Source: a virus. Taken from it: a DNA stretch of 29,332 nucleotides. The translations under genes and the position numbers were made by a program. The stretch is from the IMG/VR virus record IMGVR_UViG_3300049445_000358; one strand, written 5' to 3'. Positions 11,648 to 29,332 of the stretch are shown here, in pieces. The notes under the pieces were generated by a model, which saw only the letters and a program-made list of their open reading frames with translations, was not told the origin of the DNA and made no database searches. Positions within the stretch are counted from its first letter, which is position 1. Each line of letters begins with the position of its first letter.

Positions 11648-12279
11648 TGAGTCGCCAACTTTGCAGCTATCTCACGTGCAGTGCCCACTGCGGCTTGTTC
11701 AGCAATCTCTTCTGGTGGCTGCGCCCACGCTAAATAGATCACCCCAACAAACGCAGTGTGGTGTGGTGGAATCGGAACAGCACATCCACGCCTCATGTTG
11801 CGCTCAAATAGGCGTCTGCTTAGAGGCCCCTTCTCTTCCGACAAATCAACACAGACCGGGCTACCTTCGAGTACTTGTACAAGTTTTCGCATATCTGAAG
11901 TGGTCACGATAACAGGTAGACGGCGAGGATTTGGAATGACAGGACGTTCTCCATCGCGTCGCCTAGCTGCAATGAACTTTTGAGAATTGCTGCCTAGGTC
12001 AATCGACCAAATCTGCACTAAATCGGCTCCAGTCTGCTCAACTAAATGGCTAAGTGCTTGCGGTATCTCGTGAGTCTTGAGCACAACCTGGTCAGGAGTC
12101 AACCACGACTCGATAATCGCTTCACGATTCTCGTAGAGTACCCATCCAGTCCCTCCTATAATGAACAGCAGGATTACTACTGCCGCTTTCCAGGGAGAGT
12201 CAATATACCCCAGGATCTGGCTGATTATGCCAGCAATACCTCCAGGGGAGGGCTGTAGCGGAGCAGGAGGTTCGGTCAT
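11644..12279 (-). CDS. Single-TM protein with C-terminal GAF-like domain (T4 T-holin-like architecture)
   Basis: 211 aa with a TM segment 'AAVVILLFIIGGTGWVLY'. The C-terminal 'GCAVPIPP...FVGVIYLAW...AAVGTAREIAAKL' is GAF-like. Two Cys. Overlaps the TerL stop by 4 nt. Confidence 0.55.
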   Translation of the reverse strand: MTEPPAPLQPSPGGIAGIISQILGYIDSPWKAAVVILLFIIGGTGWVLYENREAIIESWLTPDQVVLKTHEIPQALSHLVEQTGADLVQIWSIDLGSNSQKFIAARRRDGERPVIPNPRRLPVIVTTSDMRKLVQVLEGSPVCVDLSEEKGPLSRRLFERNMRRGCAVPIPPHHTAFVGVIYLAWAQPPEEIAEQAAVGTAREIAAKLATQ

Positions 12280-14213
12280 CGCTGGCCTGGGCGTTGTTCG
12301 GCTATTTCGGCCTCCATCTTGCGTACGCGAGACACTTCCTCCTGCATGTACGCAATGAAACCCGCTCCAACGACATGAGGACGTGCATGAGCAATGACAA
12401 CCGCATCGCCCTTATCAGGTGATCGTCCCAGTCGGGCTTTGACATGCTCCTTGGGCTCCACCAAAATCCCTCGGGGGGTTAGGGACCACAGAGGCGCAGT
12501 TAGATCAGCCAAGAGTCCCGGATCGGGTGGCAGAGCTAAGTCCTCTCCCAGGTCTGGATCAAGGGCTTCTCTGAATTTCCACCACCATTCCGCTCGAGAA
12601 TTCGCGAAACCTAGCTTGCCAGAGCGATCTTTTGCGATGGACTTCTCTGACATGATCATCGGAATGATGTCCATCTGCATCATTTTGCCGATATCGACAG
12701 GAGCTGTGCCGACACCAGTTACGTCAATCTGAATGCGTCGCTTCGCAAACCCGTGATCGATCAGGAGCTGGATGATCTGGTTACCATCCTTGGTTTGTCT
12801 TCCAGGAACCGCTAAGAGATTGGCAAACCAGTTCTCTAATCTGTCGACGATGATGGTCTCATCCTTGCCACCACGTGACACGTCTACGCCAACAGCGCTC
12901 TCGCGTTCAGCAGTTGCTAGCCTGATCTGCAGTTCTTGATTGGTTTTTGGCGCAGGAGGTAGCTTCTTCGCGATGTTATGCTGTGTGATCGCGTAGGTGT
13001 CTGTCCCAGAGAATCCTAGGAGTGATTCTGGTATCGGGATGTCTTCTCCACCCTTGCGGCGGGGCAGATCCTCAGACGCGGGCCGACTGAATAGTGGCGG
13101 CGGGAGCCGTTGGTTGGACGCAGACGCCAGGTCTTCCGCTATTTCTGAGGCCTCCTCAGGTTTTTCCTCCTTGTCTATCTCCTCGTGGATCTTCTCCAGA
13201 CGTGCTTTCTCTTGCTTCTCCAGGAATGCCTCAAAGGTGGAGGCCCATCTGGCTTGCGCCGCCAACACCCAGTCCGTCGGGATAACTTGCCATTCGTGAT
13301 CTTCTTGACCGACACCGAAATCTCCTCTCAACATCCGTGAACGCAGGGGTTCTGGCAACCCCTGTAAGGTGCGCCGATACCCAGTCTCCATGAGTCTGGG
13401 GTTGTCTTCGACCCTTGCTCGGATGAAAGTGCGGGATTTTGGGTAAACTAAGTCGGTTTCTCCTCCCTCGTACGTGATTTCTACAGGATCGGGTCCGTCT
13501 ACCTCCATGTCTTCGCCATCAGGTCCGACGATGTACCAGCGTAACTCGCCCTGTTTTGCTGGGTTTGGATGCCTTGGGTCGAGCCATGGACCCCAGTACT
13601 TGATGACCCACTGTCCTTGAGCATCAACAGGAGGATTCCCAGTCGCTATGATCCTCACCCGCTGTCTTTGGCGAGTCGTGCGATTCCAGGTGCCTAAGAA
13701 CCGGTACTGTTTCTCGGAGAACTGTGTAATTTCGTCAAAACCCTTGAGATCGTGAGGTCGACCTTGGAACTTCTGTTCGTCGCCCTCGTATTGGCAGGCA
13801 CCGAACTCGATACGAGCACCTTTGAACTCCCCCTCTAAGATGCGCCAGAGTTCAAGCTGGCCATTGAACTTGCCGATTTCAGCAAACAGCTCTTCAGAAC
13901 GCTCCCGAATGCCTTTGAGCTCGGCATACTCACGACGGAAGATGATCGTACGCCAGTGTCTCGTTAACCCAGCTCCAAGTAGGAGGTCGGTCTTGCCCCC
14001 TCCAGCAGCTCCACCATAGAAGAGCTCATCCGCTATGCAGTCCAGCGCAATCGATTGGGGTCCTTCAAACGGCACCCAGATCGGTGTGTGGATACTTGAG
14101 AGCAGTCGGTCGATCTCCTCCCTCTCCTGATAGGTCAGGTAAGGCAGAAGGTCATTATACTCCTCCACGCGAGCCGCGATGGCAGTAACCGACGCTCTTC
14201 GGAGATCCGACAT
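12276..14213 (-). CDS. terL: Terminase large subunit
   Basis: Walker A 'YGGAAGGGKT', Walker B 'GFDEITQF', 'ATGNP', 'FIRARVEDNPRL', nuclease 'GVDVSRGGKDET' and 'RLGRSPDKGDA'. The start is placed at ATG 14213 just after the upstream stop, not at 14330. Confidence 0.95.
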   Translation of the reverse strand: MSDLRRASVTAIAARVEEYNDLLPYLTYQEREEIDRLLSSIHTPIWVPFEGPQSIALDCIADELFYGGAAGGGKTDLLLGAGLTRHWRTIIFRREYAELKGIRERSEELFAEIGKFNGQLELWRILEGEFKGARIEFGACQYEGDEQKFQGRPHDLKGFDEITQFSEKQYRFLGTWNRTTRQRQRVRIIATGNPPVDAQGQWVIKYWGPWLDPRHPNPAKQGELRWYIVGPDGEDMEVDGPDPVEITYEGGETDLVYPKSRTFIRARVEDNPRLMETGYRRTLQGLPEPLRSRMLRGDFGVGQEDHEWQVIPTDWVLAAQARWASTFEAFLEKQEKARLEKIHEEIDKEEKPEEASEIAEDLASASNQRLPPPLFSRPASEDLPRRKGGEDIPIPESLLGFSGTDTYAITQHNIAKKLPPAPKTNQELQIRLATAERESAVGVDVSRGGKDETIIVDRLENWFANLLAVPGRQTKDGNQIIQLLIDHGFAKRRIQIDVTGVGTAPVDIGKMMQMDIIPMIMSEKSIAKDRSGKLGFANSRAEWWWKFREALDPDLGEDLALPPDPGLLADLTAPLWSLTPRGILVEPKEHVKARLGRSPDKGDAVVIAHARPHVVGAGFIAYMQEEVSRVRKMEAEIAEQRPGQR

Positions 14214-14215
14214 GG

Positions 14216-14542
14216 CTAAGGCCGGGGAACGCAGACGATGTAGGCGAACAGGTCGTCCTTGATGCCTGCTGTCGTCGTTATGAATGCCGTCAGCTTGTAC
14301 CGGCAGTTCTCTACCAAGCTGTCCAGCCATGCAGAGGCTAGAGCACCCGACGAGCCCTCATTAGAGATATGGCTAGAAGGGCTTGGATCATCTGCTGTAT
14401 ACACGTCGGTAGGAGCTACAACCAGCTCCCAAGTTACCGACGCAATTGTGTCGTCTGATGGCATCCTGAGCGAGAAATCATACGTGTAGGGACGTTTGAT
14501 TGTGGGGTCTACAGGATCCCAGTCTTTGCCGACATAAGCCAT
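14216..14542 (-). CDS. Putative fibre adaptor protein
   Basis: 108 aa, 'DPTIKRPYTYDFS...DDTIASVTW...AWLDSLVENCRYKLTAFITTTAGIKD'. It resembles the small beta-sandwich KDP...DY.FDW fibre-adaptor family that follows fibre genes. Confidence 0.6.
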   Translation of the reverse strand: MAYVGKDWDPVDPTIKRPYTYDFSLRMPSDDTIASVTWELVVAPTDVYTADDPSPSSHISNEGSSGALASAWLDSLVENCRYKLTAFITTTAGIKDDLFAYIVCVPRP

Positions 14543-24647: not shown

Positions 24648-25955
24648 TCAATCCTCATCTTCTGCTGGTTCAGCAGGATGTTGGAGGTCAGTTCTCGCCT
24701 GCTCGCGGGCTTCCAACTCTGCTGTTGCGTCCTTGCGGTGCTTTGCTCGATTGAAGATCACCGCTAACCTACGCATCCGATCTTCATCGGATATCGAGCC
24801 CTCCTGTTGCACTTTGTTAAGGTCCGACGAGCTCTGCGAGCTCTGCGATGCACCGCCCCCGGAGGATGGGGGTTGGATGATGAGGTTGTTGTTTTCGTCG
24901 TAGACCTGACGAGGCCTCCCGCGAGCGGATCCCTCGGAAGACGAACCAGCACGCCCTCCGACGAGCACGGGATCGACGCCCGCGAGAGACCGTAGCATCG
25001 ACACAACCGAGGCTGCCGATTCTGTCGATGGAGGAGCATTGCCTGGCAATCCCAAGCTTAAGCGTTGTGCCGTGCTGAGTGTCTTGAGGAAGTCAACCAG
25101 GACTCTTGGGGTCATGTCGCGCCAGAAGATAATCCGGCCGTCTTCGTCCTTGGACTCTTCAGTGGTGCCGTTGATGTAGCCCAGCACCCTGTTGTACAGG
25201 GTAGTAGCATCCTGGTAGTGAGTGTTTTGTAGTTGAAGGGACATCATCGCCTGTGACCGGCGGATCCCGTCCAGGTAGAACAGGTCGTGAGCCCTCGCGC
25301 GTGGCCCCCAATAGTAGAGGGTGAACCACTCTTGGAGCTTCCGGTTCGTCTCGATGCTGAGCTCCCGGTTGATCTCGAACTCTTCCTGCTCTCTGTTATG
25401 CTCCGTCTGGAACTCTTCCTCCGCCGTGGTCGCTTGGCGCAGAGCTGGAGGCCCTAACCGCTTGAGTTGTAGGGGGTGTGAGCTGCCTAGGGCGATCGCT
25501 TGGATCTCCGGGGTGCATGCCAACGCGAACAGACGGCGCGTCCCCTCGTTCTTGCCCTGGTTCAGGTAGCGCTCGAAGGCGTAGAACGCATCGATCGGTT
25601 CGAACTCGAGGTGATGCCAGAATGGGATGCCCGACTTGCTGTCTGTTGGGAACCCTTCGCGGAAGTCCAGCGGGACGTAGGCCGCACGGACTGCACGCTC
25701 ATTTAGGACCAGTAGAGGGCCATCGTCCGTAAGCACACCCTCTGAGAGATTTGCTTCGCCGACTTGGAGCAGGGCTTCCTGTGGGACCACTCGGACTACG
25801 ACATGTTCATGTAGGAGGTCAGAGCGGTGGTACCCCTCAGGCAGACCTAAGGTGTTCAAGGGGACTCGCTTGGAGGCCTCTTTGACGATGTCCGCTCGGC
25901 TCACCCGATAGTTTTCGGGCGGGGAGGGAGTGGGTACTGGAGCTAGGCCGTCCAT
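24648..25955 (-). CDS. Terminase small subunit-like protein
   Basis: 435 aa, first gene of the leftward region. 'FWHHLEFEPIDAFYAFERYLNQG...RRL...EWFTLYYWGPRARAHD' resembles the W...E...A..AF..Y...G...W..RA.A.D pattern of one TerS family. It is longer than usual for TerS. Confidence 0.5.
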   Translation of the reverse strand: MDGLAPVPTPSPPENYRVSRADIVKEASKRVPLNTLGLPEGYHRSDLLHEHVVVRVVPQEALLQVGEANLSEGVLTDDGPLLVLNERAVRAAYVPLDFREGFPTDSKSGIPFWHHLEFEPIDAFYAFERYLNQGKNEGTRRLFALACTPEIQAIALGSSHPLQLKRLGPPALRQATTAEEEFQTEHNREQEEFEINRELSIETNRKLQEWFTLYYWGPRARAHDLFYLDGIRRSQAMMSLQLQNTHYQDATTLYNRVLGYINGTTEESKDEDGRIIFWRDMTPRVLVDFLKTLSTAQRLSLGLPGNAPPSTESAASVVSMLRSLAGVDPVLVGGRAGSSSEGSARGRPRQVYDENNNLIIQPPSSGGGASQSSQSSSDLNKVQQEGSISDEDRMRRLAVIFNRAKHRKDATAELEAREQARTDLQHPAEPAEDED

Positions 25956-26073
25956 GTGTCTTCGACTTTTAACTCCTTTAATCCTCGTGTATTATCAAAC
26001 ATGGTCGTTGGGAACATCAACAACCAAATTATAGGCGACCATAATTTCAGCCCTAGTGGGTGACCAGTCTTGC

Positions 26074-26177
26074 AGGCACATTGCCCTTCTTGGGTGGGTT
26101 TTTCATTTTTGGGGTTAGGATCTCCGGAAGGCACATTGCCTACTTTCCTCAGGTTTTTGCTTTTTGGGGTTAGGATC
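26074..26177. repeat. Imperfect 55-bp-period tandem duplication
   Basis: AGGCACATTGCC at 26074 and 26129; TTTTTGGGGTTAGGATC at 26106 and 26161. Confidence 0.85.
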
Positions 26178-26190
26178 CAGGTGCTATATA

Positions 26191-26239
26191 TTGTACGAAC
26201 GTTGATTGTAAACAATGTGTTTACAAAACGATCGTACAA
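26191..26239. repeat. 49-bp imperfect inverted repeat upstream of first early gene
   Basis: TTGTACGA-a-CGTT-ga-TTGTAAACA-atg-TGTTTACAA-AACG-a-TCGTACAA. Confidence 0.85.
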
Positions 26240-26252
26240 AAAGGAGAGTAAA

Positions 26253-26486
26253 ATGTTGAAGATCGTAAGAAAAGGTTCGAACAATAAGTACAATGGTACA
26301 GTTGTTGTTACCGATAACGATGTAAACAAGATCGAACGTACTTTCAGTTCGAAGTTCGAAGCGTTTACGTTCGGTATCGAACAAAATTGGACAAAAAAGT
26401 GTGTTATGAAGTACTGTTTACAAACCGAAAACAATCAGTACTTTCACAACTACCTAATTAAGTACCGTTCGAACGAAAACAAATAG
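26253..26486 (+). CDS. Small early protein, paralog A (77 aa, GpC-depleted DNA)
   Basis: SD AAGGAG at 26241, ATG at 26253. 44/76 aa identical to 26917..27147. Followed by a terminator. Confidence 0.85.
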   Translation: MLKIVRKGSNNKYNGTVVVTDNDVNKIERTFSSKFEAFTFGIEQNWTKKCVMKYCLQTENNQYFHNYLIKYRSNENK

Positions 26487-26511
26487 TTCGAACGAACGAA
26501 CGAACGAAAGG

Positions 26512-26544
26512 AAGGTACGATCGAAAGATCGTACCTTTCTTTTT
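26512..26544 (+). terminator. Rho-independent terminator
   Basis: AAGGTACGATC-GAAA-GATCGTACCTT followed by TCTTTTT. Confidence 0.85.
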
Positions 26545-26556
26545 GTTCGTAAAGGG

Positions 26557-26600
26557 TCATCTTCATGAAGATGAACGGGGCGTCATGTTCATGAACATGA
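26557..26600. promoter_or_regulatory. Pair of perfect 18-bp palindromes (operator-like)
   Basis: TCATCTTCATGAAGATGA (26557-26574) and TCATGTTCATGAACATGA (26583-26600). Confidence 0.65.
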
Positions 26601-26603
26601 ACT

Positions 26604-26676
26604 GGCCCGGCGGCCCGGCGGGAGGGCCTCCCTTTGGCCCGGCGGCCCGGTCGCCCTCCCTTCCCTGGGGCCCGGC
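26604..26676. repeat. GGCCCGG(C) repeat cluster
   Basis: Copies at 26604, 26612, 26636, 26644 and 26669, with a further copy at 27201. Confidence 0.8.
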
Positions 26677-26826
26677 GTACCATTGACCATCAGCTGGTCG
26701 CCGATGCCAGTGGGTTCACCCTGTACTCCATTTTTGCCCTCCAGCCAAAAAACCATTTCCCGCCCAGTACAGCGATTTGCGCTTGGCTGCCAGGCAAAAA
26801 ACTCTTAAATGCCCTAAAAATAACGC

Positions 26827-26855
26827 TTGATTCCAAATTAGAACCCCTATATAAT
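26827..26855 (+). promoter_or_regulatory. Sigma70-type early promoter
   Basis: TTGATT-N17-TATAAT with A-tracts upstream. Confidence 0.85.
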
Positions 26856-26916
26856 TATCACAATAACAATAAGAAACCAATTAACCCAAACCCTCTTTAA
26901 CCTAGGGAACTGTAAC

Positions 26917-27147
26917 ATGTTGAAGATCGTAAAGTCCAACGGTTCGAAGAAGTACGAAGGTAACGTCGTCGTTACGGATGCGATGGCAGCCGCCGTCGAC
27001 CAGACCTTCAAGTCGAAGTTCGACGCGTTCTGCTACGGGATCGAGAACAACTGGTCGAAGAAGTCGATCATGAAGTACTGTCTCGACACGGAGAACAACC
27101 AGTACTTCCACAACTACTACACCAAGTACCAGGCCGCCCAAAAGTAA
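26917..27147 (+). CDS. Small early protein, paralog B (76 aa)
   Basis: Has its own promoter and terminator, uses C/G-ending codons, and is a paralog of 26253..26486. Confidence 0.9.
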   Translation: MLKIVKSNGSKKYEGNVVVTDAMAAAVDQTFKSKFDAFCYGIENNWSKKSIMKYCLDTENNQYFHNYYTKYQAAQK

Positions 27148-27163
27148 TTGGGCACAAAGGGGG

Positions 27164-27190
27164 AGGGGAGCTTCGGCTCCCCTTTCTTTT
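27164..27190 (+). terminator. Rho-independent terminator
   Basis: AGGGGAGC-TTCG-GCTCCCCT followed by TTCTTTT. Confidence 0.9.
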
Positions 27191-27376
27191 GTCTCCCTAA
27201 GGCCCGGCGGCTGGGTGTCCCCATACCCAACGCCACAGCTCACATCAGACCCTCGATAGGGCGCCGATGCCATAGGTCCAAAATAACCAACCGTTCACCT
27301 CAGCAATCTGAAAAACCATTTCTTGCCCAGTACATGAGTTTTGCCCGGTGTACTTTACGCCTCATAAAATACCCTA

Positions 27377-27616: not shown

Positions 27617-27655
27617 CAAAAGGCAAAAAACTCTGATTGCCCAAAAAATTCCCTA

Positions 27656-27684
27656 TTGAATCCAAATTAGAACTCCTATATAAT
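27656..27684 (+). promoter_or_regulatory. Sigma70-type early promoter (near copy of the 26827 promoter)
   Basis: TTGAAT-N17-TATAAT; the spacer CCAAATTAGAACTCCTA differs by one base from CCAAATTAGAACCCCTA. Confidence 0.85.
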
Positions 27685-27740
27685 TATCATAATAACAAAA
27701 AGAAACCAATAACCCAAAACCCCAACTTCGAGGAACCACG

Positions 27741-28946: not shown

Positions 28947-28963
28947 CGGCAGCAAAAGGAGGG

Positions 28964-28990
28964 AAGGCGGCTTCGGCCGCCTTTCTTTTT
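28964..28990 (+). terminator. Rho-independent terminator
   Basis: AAGGCGGC-TTCG-GCCGCCTT followed by TCTTTTT. Confidence 0.9.
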
Positions 28991-29332
28991 GCCTGCATGG
29001 GGGGCGTGCCTTCAGCTTTGCCTCCACGTTGACGGGCAGGGCCGCCCGGCCGCCTGTCAAACAGGGTTTTTCTGTATTGCCCACGGCCCTTTTCAAATGG
29101 CCTTCCCACGCTATGGCGGGACCTTAGGCACAGGGCGGTTGGTTGAACGCAGCAGAGAGCACGGAGGCAACTAAATGCACTTCCTCATCCCCCACGGGGC
29201 AACTCGTAACCAAACTAGGTTAACTTATTGAAATACAACAAGATAACGGATTCGGGGGGACGGTGTGGTTTGTATTTACCCTGTCAAAAAATGAACGTGG
29301 CTAATGTATTCCTGTTTATAAAGTTTTAACTG

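Follow-up and report, generated by a model that had tools for sequence, protein, structure and literature searches.

The window analyzed here is a stretch of 29,332 nucleotides (nt) covering bases 5091-34422 of a 54.9-kb IMG/VR virus record (IMGVR_UViG_3300049445_000358) from an uncultured soil phage, and it contains two paralogous small genes, copy A and copy B, that encode one kind of protein in two very different sequence styles. The record is a linear fragment, and sister contigs (99,327 bp, arbitrarily cut) encode protein A identically. Late genes for the portal, large terminase, a protease-containing polyprotein, endolysin and a spanin-like protein occupy the minus strand up to position 25955, and an array of very small plus-strand genes, every one of them provided with a separate promoter and terminator, begins at about 26190. 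Copies A and B are the first two genes of this early array, copy A being the first gene past the late/early strand switch. Their products align without gaps at 44 of 76 residues (58% amino acid identity), and each copy ends in a separate hairpin and T-run terminator, as an earlier reading of this DNA alone (the original prediction) had described. Cassette A (26185-26556), which comprises copy A with its untranslated regions (UTRs), is AT-rich, almost free of GpC and built from a few recurring words. The features of slot A are as follows.

26070..26184, plus strand: tandem 55-bp units (GGCACATTGCC...TTTTTGGGGTTAGGATC; repeats D7/D9)
26164-26184, plus strand: predicted slot-A promoter motif TTGGGGTTAGGATCCAGGTGC, into which the second 55-bp unit leads
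26182..26192, plus strand: extended -10-like element TGC-TATATA / TATATT (from the sequence and GpC positions)
26193..26237, plus strand: 45-nt 5' leader hairpin with outer stem GTACGAACG/CGATCGTAC and inner stem TTGTAAACA-ATG-TGTTTACAA (minimum-free-energy and centroid folds)
26240..26248, plus strand: Shine-Dalgarno sequence AAAGGAGAG, ending 4 nt 5' of the ATG (from the sequence; purine-rich element kept in the alignment)
26253..26486, plus strand: copy A, 77 amino acids (aa), GC 35.5%, GC at third codon positions (GC3) 0.49, 1 GpC (in an Ala GCG codon), 16 CpG
26489..26508, plus strand: (CGAA)5 microsatellite-like spacer between stop codon and terminator (from the sequence)
26507..26550, plus strand: cassette A terminator, 16-bp stem, GAAA loop and T-run (inverted repeat I5, hairpin 26507-26545; fold)

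Slot B follows directly.

26748..26771 and 27311-27334, plus strand: 24-nt direct repeats bracketing the 563-bp B cassette (repeat D10)
26827..26916, plus strand: standard early promoter TTGATT-N17-TATAAT (26827-26855) and an A/C-rich, G-poor leader (promoter scan; repeats D2/D4)
26917..27147, plus strand: copy B, 76 aa, GC 50.6%, GC3 0.88, 8 GpC (7 in Ala codons)
27157..27192, plus strand: cassette B terminator with a G/C-rich stem, UUCG loop and T-run (sequence, fold)

The composition of cassette A reflects more than chance or AT-richness. Positions 26191-26550 contain 1 GpC and 29 CpG dinucleotides, where base composition predicts 11.6 of each. No other 360-nt window of the record was as extreme for GpC (observed/expected ratio [o/e], 0.09) or had as few distinct 4-mers (123, the mean being 175 and the standard deviation 11), and windows of equal GC (0.35-0.39, near 29200-29400) held 6-10 GpC each. 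The two largest GpC-free gaps of the 54.9-kb record adjoin here (26183 to 26361 to 26580), and the last GpC before them is the GC of the TGC in the -10-like element. The AT-rich, GpC-free tract is thus sharply bounded by the predicted transcript, with the gaps beginning at the -10 element and GC remaining at 0.34-0.41 over 26160-26560 before jumping to 0.63-0.81. Proximately, the GpC loss comes from the use of codons with a final T for Gly, Cys and Arg, from the encoding of Ser by TCG and from the loss of Ala: copy A uses no TGC, GGC, AGC or CGC codon and has 1 Ala against 7 in copy B. In the long genes of the phage, by comparison, 88% of Cys residues are encoded by TGC and 38% of Gly residues by GGC. 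GC at first and second codon positions is low in both copies, because the protein is rich in Lys, Asn, Tyr, Phe and Ile.

These biases persisted in resampling. Synonymous resampling of copy A gave 6.0-7.4 GpC against the 1 observed (P = 0.002 when codons were drawn uniformly; P < 0.0002 when they were drawn by genome usage), and matching third-position composition gave 6.1 ± 1.8 (P = 0.002). The noncoding parts of the cassette behaved similarly under shuffling, with 0 GpC (4.4 expected; P = 0.005) and 13 CpG (4.4 expected; P < 0.0001). Word poverty was equally pronounced. Against mononucleotide shuffles the z score was -8.6 for 4-mers and -11.5 for 6-mers, a first-order Markov model left z = -3.8 for 6-mers, and GC3-matched resampling of copy A produced 137 ± 5.5 distinct 4-mers where 108 were observed. 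Depletion of GpC and poverty in k-mers therefore hold once AT content is controlled, a check that the original prediction had proposed. Its counts were also reproduced throughout: the single GpC and abundant CpG, the Ala numbers, the four absent codons, and the words GTAC (10 times), TCGAA (8 times) and (CGAA)5.

The same words are used inside and outside the coding sequence (CDS). When synonymous codons were permuted, which keeps the protein and the codon usage of the copy, repeated 6-mers within the copy A CDS numbered 64 against 33 ± 8 (P < 0.001), and 6-mers common to the CDS and its own flanks numbered 67 against 43 ± 7 (P = 0.001). Relatives L008, L010, L142 and L017, introduced below, likewise displayed excess word reuse, and the copy B CDS showed no excess of words shared with its own flanks by the same permutation (3 against 3.1). 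The cassette of this subclade is built of few palindromic words with CG steps (GTAC, TCGAA/CGAAC and GATCG), which recur in the hairpin arms, CDS and spacer of cassette A, and its stems use CG steps and never GC steps. Half of the record's copies of GTTCGAA (5 of 10) fall inside the 370-nt cassette, at 26275, 26347, 26354, 26467 and 26486, and the recurring words include GTTCGAAC. A repeat search found no longer direct-repeat family inside cassette A.

The original prediction had explained this texture by defense evasion: copy A would be selected to present few distinct recognition sequences to restriction, BREX or similar systems, so that a product countering them is made first, with B as a backup. 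On this reading cassette A would lie in the first-injected DNA. Cassette A does have the smallest k-mer repertoire of the genome (counting both strands, 453 distinct 6-mers where 617 ± 27 were expected, or 11% against 15% of all 6-mers), copy A is the first gene after the strand switch, and the cassette is hypervariable between near-identical phages, as is typical of leading regions with anti-defense genes. A report on Murciavirus (Autographiviridae) describes leading regions as variable and rich in anti-defense genes and offers a precedent, in that the absence of a Type I restriction-modification motif from the leading region alone gave escape (PMC12455610). However, low k-mer diversity should not be taken for restriction avoidance before the sites are counted, and here counting sites pointed the other way. 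Palindromes are enriched in cassette A, both of 4 bp (33 against 25.3 expected) and of 6 bp (13 against 6.6), and Type II-style sites abound, including 10 GTAC, 8 TCGA and 5 GATC (each against 1.1 expected), 5 TTCGAA, 2 CGATCG and 2 AGTACT. GC-core sites are absent from the cassette yet common elsewhere (290 AGCT, 208 TGCA, 232 GGCC), and the entire GpC dinucleotide is missing rather than one particular motif. GpC content is ordinary in the DNA immediately upstream, which would be injected before the cassette. The 6-mer target space is cut by about a quarter, the chance of carrying a given 6-mer being about 11% instead of 15%, which offers little protection from any one motif.

Two further points bear on the defense reading. 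AT-richness is universal among the relatives, whereas L012 and L142 show no GpC loss and L010 and L017 only a weak one. The protein is also basic (13 Lys plus Arg against 7 Asp plus Glu in copy A), so that it is no acidic DNA mimic, and it matched no family in Pfam (E ≤ 0.1), PHROG, NCBIfam or PADLOC searches. The reading rests entirely on an assumed position at the leading end of the genome. Because of the palindrome load, the ordinary upstream GpC content, the small cut in target space and an AT-richness that alone is family-wide, we consider it doubtful that a sequence-specific host defense selected this texture, and the searches gave no support to an anti-defense product. The observation itself is real, statistically robust and broader than could be seen from this one stretch; the proposed cause is its weakest part.

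Sequence searches recovered 26 small homologs, all on metagenome or viral contigs and none annotated, and the DNA of 13 loci was taken for comparison. The duplicated pair that the original prediction suggested seeking in related phages is present in at least five lineages including the window, and in every pair the first copy lies 12-18 GC points below the second, as listed here.

Window: first copy 35.5%, second copy 50.6%
L010/L143: first copy 34.2%, second copy 46.8%
L006: first copy about 38%, second copy 50.4%
L012: first copy 33.3%, second copy 51.2%
L142: first copy 26.8%, second copy 42.9%

The single-copy relatives L008, L017, L144, L145 and L146 carry the first type, at 34-42% GC in loci of 44-56% GC. 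The window, L008 (1 GpC in 313+108 nt) and L006 clearly display the GpC-free, CpG-rich texture, L010, L017 and L144 display it in part, and it is missing from L142 and from L012, whose first copy has 7 GpC against 6.9 expected. Across the wider family it is thus AT-richness alone that is conserved, and the GpC-free, CpG-rich style is confined to one subclade. First-type alleles are saturated at synonymous sites (synonymous divergence [dS] 1.0-1.9), while the protein family is conserved (ratio of nonsynonymous to synonymous divergence, about 0.2-0.3). Since saturated synonymous sites retain the same texture, it is maintained rather than only passed on by descent.

The sister phage L008 revealed how the first cassette changes. 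It is 95-100% identical to the window over 24900-26180 and from 26511 onward, and only 48-78% identical over 26181-26510, a span that starts exactly at the -10 element and stops at the (CGAA)n tract, indicating that leader and CDS were replaced as a unit. The replacement allele is equally GpC-free, and it shares its vocabulary with window A at 57% protein identity. L008 also lacks the 563-bp B cassette, the alignment jumping from 26771 to 27311. B is bracketed by 24-nt repeats in the window and a single repeat (L008 3498-3521) is left in the sister phage, a clean case of cassette loss or gain by short-repeat recombination. B is absent from several other lineages as well, and the case of L008 indicates that B is dispensable when A is present.

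A historical explanation must be considered at this point, in which phages, AT-rich ones among them, share a circulating pool of mobile modules that supplied cassette A, so that the composition of the cassette reflects its origin and no function in this genome. The allele replacement, cleanly delimited by the -10 element and the (CGAA)n tract, is consistent with this idea, as is the occurrence of the family both in a 35% GC contig (L016, whose gene has 31% GC) and in phages of 44-56% GC. In addition, the allele tree on 77 columns has no resolution, and A and B types are mixed in it. Nevertheless, no near-identical AT-rich donor, which the original prediction had recognized as evidence of simple transfer, was found in the phage collection, IMG/VR or metagenome scans. 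A blastn search of 26100-27200 against 50,697 phage records returned no match, a promoter 14-mer scan of IMG/VR gave chance matches only, none encoding the family, and the one relevant contig from an 18-base promoter scan of metagenomes was the L006 allele again. An exhaustive profile search added five more small relatives and four long repeat proteins (such as a CheA with six P2 repeats), the latter treated as summed weak repeat matches and not counted as relatives.

Low GC moreover tracks the slot in five lineages, one of them being L142, where the two proteins group as sisters (71% aa identity; support 97/91). A derived NNQYFH motif is likewise common to window A, window B and the L008 allele. 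Copies inside one genome thus co-evolve or convert each other, with the composition gap re-established afterward, and a gap re-established despite shared ancestry leads us to attribute the dialect to the slot and not to ancestry. The lack of amelioration in alleles at dS 1.0-1.9 also points to a constraint. We therefore regard a purely historical origin as unlikely; AT-matched controls, saturated alleles and the five-lineage pattern together indicate that neither chance, nor AT-richness by itself, nor a single transfer event accounts for the texture.

Slot A has an anatomy as distinctive as its composition. A conserved motif of about 30 nt lies upstream of every first-type copy and ends in (T)CCAGGTGC, usually followed by TATAT. 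We aligned it upstream of the first copy in 10 lineages, in which GGTGC is invariant, and it occurs once in the window, with no copy in the next 20 kb. As a putative promoter motif present once per genome it can be written ...TCCAGGTGC plus TATAT, and GGTGCTATAT at the -10-like element is kept in L008 and L006. A sigma-70 promoter scan made no consensus call at 26182..26192, where the -35 region is poor; because of this, promoter function for the motif is something we infer. Each upstream 55-bp unit runs in the order GGCACATTGCC, T-rich tract, TTTTTGGGGTTAGGATC, and the second unit alone runs on into CAGGTGCTATAT; relatives have a single unit in place of the tandem repeat.

The leader folds into a consensus hairpin of 18 pairs (RNAalifold, 7 lineages), 11 of which show compensatory double changes, and its loop varies between lineages from 2 to 10 nt. 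This variation, and the lack of any giant virion RNA polymerase gene seen in the record, led us to set aside an N4-type hairpin promoter. Past the stop codon every lineage has a repetitive tract, which is (CGAA)5 here and (AAAAGTA)3 or (GAACGGAA)2 elsewhere, with equivalent repeats in L008, L017, L144, L010 and L142, and then a long GNRA-loop hairpin. The stem of the A terminator can lengthen to about 23 bp if the CGAA/purine tract pairs with the T-run. As a whole, the predicted A transcript folds with z = -8.0 (-6.1 in L008), against -4.1 for B. An Rfam 15 scan of 25900-27300 reached at best 20-25 bits against gathering scores of 50-440.

Just past the A terminator, at 26557-26600, are two perfect 18-bp palindromes, TCATCTTCATGAAGATGA and TCATGTTCATGAACATGA, with starts 26 bp apart. 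They are retained in L008 and are operator-like in appearance, as for a dimeric protein. GC-rich motifs of the GGCCCGGCGG type stand directly 3' of early-cassette terminators, at 26604-26689 and 27193-27221, with local GC up to 0.81, and occur also in the distant relatives L006 (about 2470-2490) and L012 (about 1820-1900).

Slot B, by comparison, is composed of standard parts. Its promoter belongs to the early consensus TTGAyT-N17-TATAAT that recurs before later early genes, a second copy of about 100 nt of its promoter and leader precedes a later early gene, at 27621-27722, and a terminator like its own is found at 28952-28994 (repeat D5). The GC3 of B (0.88) is similar to that of its early neighbors g4 (0.89) and g5 (0.82). 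This codon style, together with the absence of B from L008 and other lineages, partly supports the description of B as a normally spelled, dispensable duplicate.

Combining the anatomy of the slots, its conservation, the sequence statistics and the observed module exchange, we tentatively favor a model in which one protein is produced from two regulatory slots under slot-specific sequence constraints, with the first cassette exchanged as a module. Slot A would be an old, self-contained monocistronic cassette, defined by its putative once-per-genome promoter motif, long leader hairpin, strong Shine-Dalgarno sequence, AT-rich CDS, microsatellite spacer and GNRA-loop terminator. Its message would be stabilized and made independently of other early genes, probably immediately on infection. 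Slot B would be the standard early cassette of the phage with ordinary early-gene codon style, an accessory duplicate lost by some relatives. The dialect of copy A would then belong to the slot, in that any allele placed there is 12-18 GC points poorer than its partner, and the constraint would act on the cassette or its RNA and not through host restriction.

Several observations weigh against this two-slot model. The inner palindrome of the leader, TTGTAAA-N7-9-TTTACAA, is conserved in sequence in six lineages, and it could therefore mark a protein-binding site rather than an RNA stabilizer. RNA structure does not explain the wording of the CDS, which alone folds with z of only -1 to -2 against synonymous permutations (+1.5 in L142). 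CpG is enriched 2-3 fold even in the noncoding parts while GpC is excluded, and the model is silent on why. The transcription start site, timing, mRNA stability and relative abundance of A and B that it invokes are inferred from sequence.

The conserved leader palindrome leads to another reading, in which the recurring words are cis-acting sites for an operator, packaging or replication function, possibly recognized by the helix-turn-helix (HTH)-like product of the gene itself. Taken further, cassette A would be a portable specificity module in which a tiny HTH-like protein and the words that it recognizes travel in the same 370 nt and are swapped together; the word-poor texture would be a binding-site array laid over the CDS, and B would add protein without sites. 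The concentration of GTTCGAA in the cassette, word reuse above codon-level expectation and the coincidence of the swapped L008 segment with the word-rich segment are all consistent with such an array.

What can be said of the protein is also relevant to a site array. The AlphaFold2 model of A (pLDDT 85.5) has an extended N-terminal third and helices at 34-43, 48-56 and 61-75. Residues 31-77 weakly, if consistently, resemble the tri-helical HTH domains of LuxR/GerE, sigma region 4 and the N terminus of the small terminase TerS (VIA Z 3.3-4.3), with superposition at about 2 Å root mean square deviation over 44-46 residues and an atlas TM score of 0.45-0.48, which is below the informative level for small helical proteins and far below that separating their true relatives. 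No match fell below E = 0.8 in a profile search against the PDB, Foldseek against the PDB and BFVD found no fold match at E ≤ 0.001, and a feature search of the ESM atlas gave no usable match. We rejected a small terminase identity. The TerS-like match is weak and to the HTH of 4xvn only, and TerS combines an N-terminal HTH with an oligomerization core (about 100-180 aa) and is encoded beside terL in the late operon. Protein A has 77 aa with no further, oligomerization domain, and its gene lies in an early cassette on the strand opposite terL (12276-14330) and 12 kb from it, features that also argue against the site array.

Moreover, the words are of 5-8 nt with irregular spacing and are not iteron-like. 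Vocabularies differ between lineages while the putative recognition helices (MKYCL, QYFxNY) are nearly invariant, and conversely the window and L008 are alike in vocabulary at only 57% protein identity. We consider cis-acting sites of this kind rather improbable, and give the portable specificity module the same low standing. A and B are paralogs in a family of very small, basic, mostly helical early phage proteins, for which we can only guess at a nucleic-acid-binding or RNA-polymerase-binding role.

The GpC-free tract matches the predicted transcript, beginning at the -10 element and ending beyond the terminator, and this also raises RNA-level immunity, in which an immediate-early message excludes GC to escape a GC-site endoribonuclease, for instance a toxin of the MqsR type or an RNase used by phages for host shutoff. 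MqsR-type toxins have GCU/GCA as their site, and the sole remaining GpC of the window, L008 and L006 alleles is GCG, never GCU or GCA. However, this codon is GCG in most copies of both types and is probably ancestral, L010 retains four GCU within AAGCTT, and B and other early messages have ordinary GpC numbers. No GC-specific RNase was identified. Escape from such a nuclease is very unlikely in our view.

We also asked how far A and B have been driven apart from each other. They share 65% nucleotide identity, and their longest in-register identical run is 16 nt, as might be expected if divergence served to prevent recombinational deletion of one tandem paralog; deletion between short direct repeats does happen at this locus. 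Nevertheless, conserved residues displayed no deficit of shared codons relative to the usage of each copy (27 identical codons against 23.9 ± 2.1 expected in the window, 26 against 21.6 in L010 and 17 against 20.1 in L142), and this codon-identity test led us to reject antirecombination recoding. Such recoding would also leave unexplained the AT-rich direction in slot A, the texture of the UTRs and the AT-rich single-copy lineages, making it the least credible explanation that we considered. The GCN codons of B face AAC, GTA, AAC and AAG in A in the codon alignment, and only one aligned codon fits a transition. This result, along with the same texture in single-copy lineages, rejects context-specific deamination resembling repeat-induced point mutation. 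The 21 nt around the two start codons (26248-26268 and 26912-26932; GTAA[A/C]ATGTTGAAGATCGTAA) are 95% identical, and ATG TTG AAG ATC GTA is retained in most relatives of both copy types.

Other features of the record concern its composition more broadly. We dropped 7-deazaguanine DNA modification as a candidate after searches for TGT/DpdA and QueC returned no match in this record or that of L010. Across the whole record (G000), TCGA (o/e 2.09) and GATC (o/e 1.86) are strongly over-represented, as are CTCGAG, GTCGAC and CGATCG (o/e 2.4-2.6). TTTAAA does not occur (7.3 expected), and GTGCAC (2 against 15.8 expected) and GGGCCC (4 against 23.2) are rare. A second AT-rich island, at 29150-29332 and continuing to about 290-740 of L018, is noncoding, spans about 600 nt at GC 0.35-0.39, has ordinary GpC (o/e 0.5-0.85) and lacks the slot-A promoter motif.

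Tiny genes of unassigned function abound in the early regions of phages, and composition is usually treated as a property of the whole genome. In the present case, an expression slot of 370 nt retains a composition and vocabulary distinct to it across saturated lineages and allele replacement, with a normal-style paralog next door, which points to a strong, still unnamed constraint on the CDS together with its UTRs. Naming this constraint would be informative whether RNA stability, binding sites within the sequence, a nuclease or a defense system lies behind it, and it would give a handle on a conserved, uncharacterized protein family whose expression is probably immediate-early.

Compared with phage leading regions, such as the first-step-transfer DNA of T5, gene 0.3 of T7 and the leading region of Murciavirus (PMC12455610), cassette A is alike in holding the first gene after a strand switch with strong signals of its own, in its high variability between close relatives and in its small word repertoire. 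It differs in being palindrome-rich and in having compositionally ordinary DNA upstream. Unlike Ocr and ArdA, protein A is basic and has no link to anti-restriction families. Its residues 31-77 superpose on the HTH domains of LuxR/GerE, sigma-70 region 4 and TerS at the distances given above, but with low Z scores, TM below 0.5, no profile match and a third helix rich in Tyr, Phe and Asn, which are not typical DNA-reading residues.

Cis-acting sites inside the gene of the protein that uses them are found in the lambda ori within gene O, the P1 pac hexamers within pacA and the P22 and SPP1 pac sites in or near terS. Cassette A resembles these in its short words in and around a small gene, a possibly HTH-like product and their joint exchange, but it lacks long regular iterons, and its 77-aa protein matches no family and is encoded far from terL and the replication genes. 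The 5' stem-loops of the Escherichia coli ompA leader and of Bacillus phage SP82 early RNA stabilize mRNA. Slot A is similar to them in its long hairpin at or near the predicted 5' end, its compensatory changes and its very stable 3' hairpin, whereas its inner stem is conserved in sequence, which could equally mark a protein-binding site. Finally, the locus may be compared with the arrays of promoter, small gene and terminator cassettes by which lytic phages take over the host, such as the host-takeover module of SPO1. Both have very small early genes with their own promoter, ribosome site and terminator and duplicated noncoding scaffolds, but here one cassette stands apart with a unique promoter, leader and composition, and its paralog sits in the next cassette.

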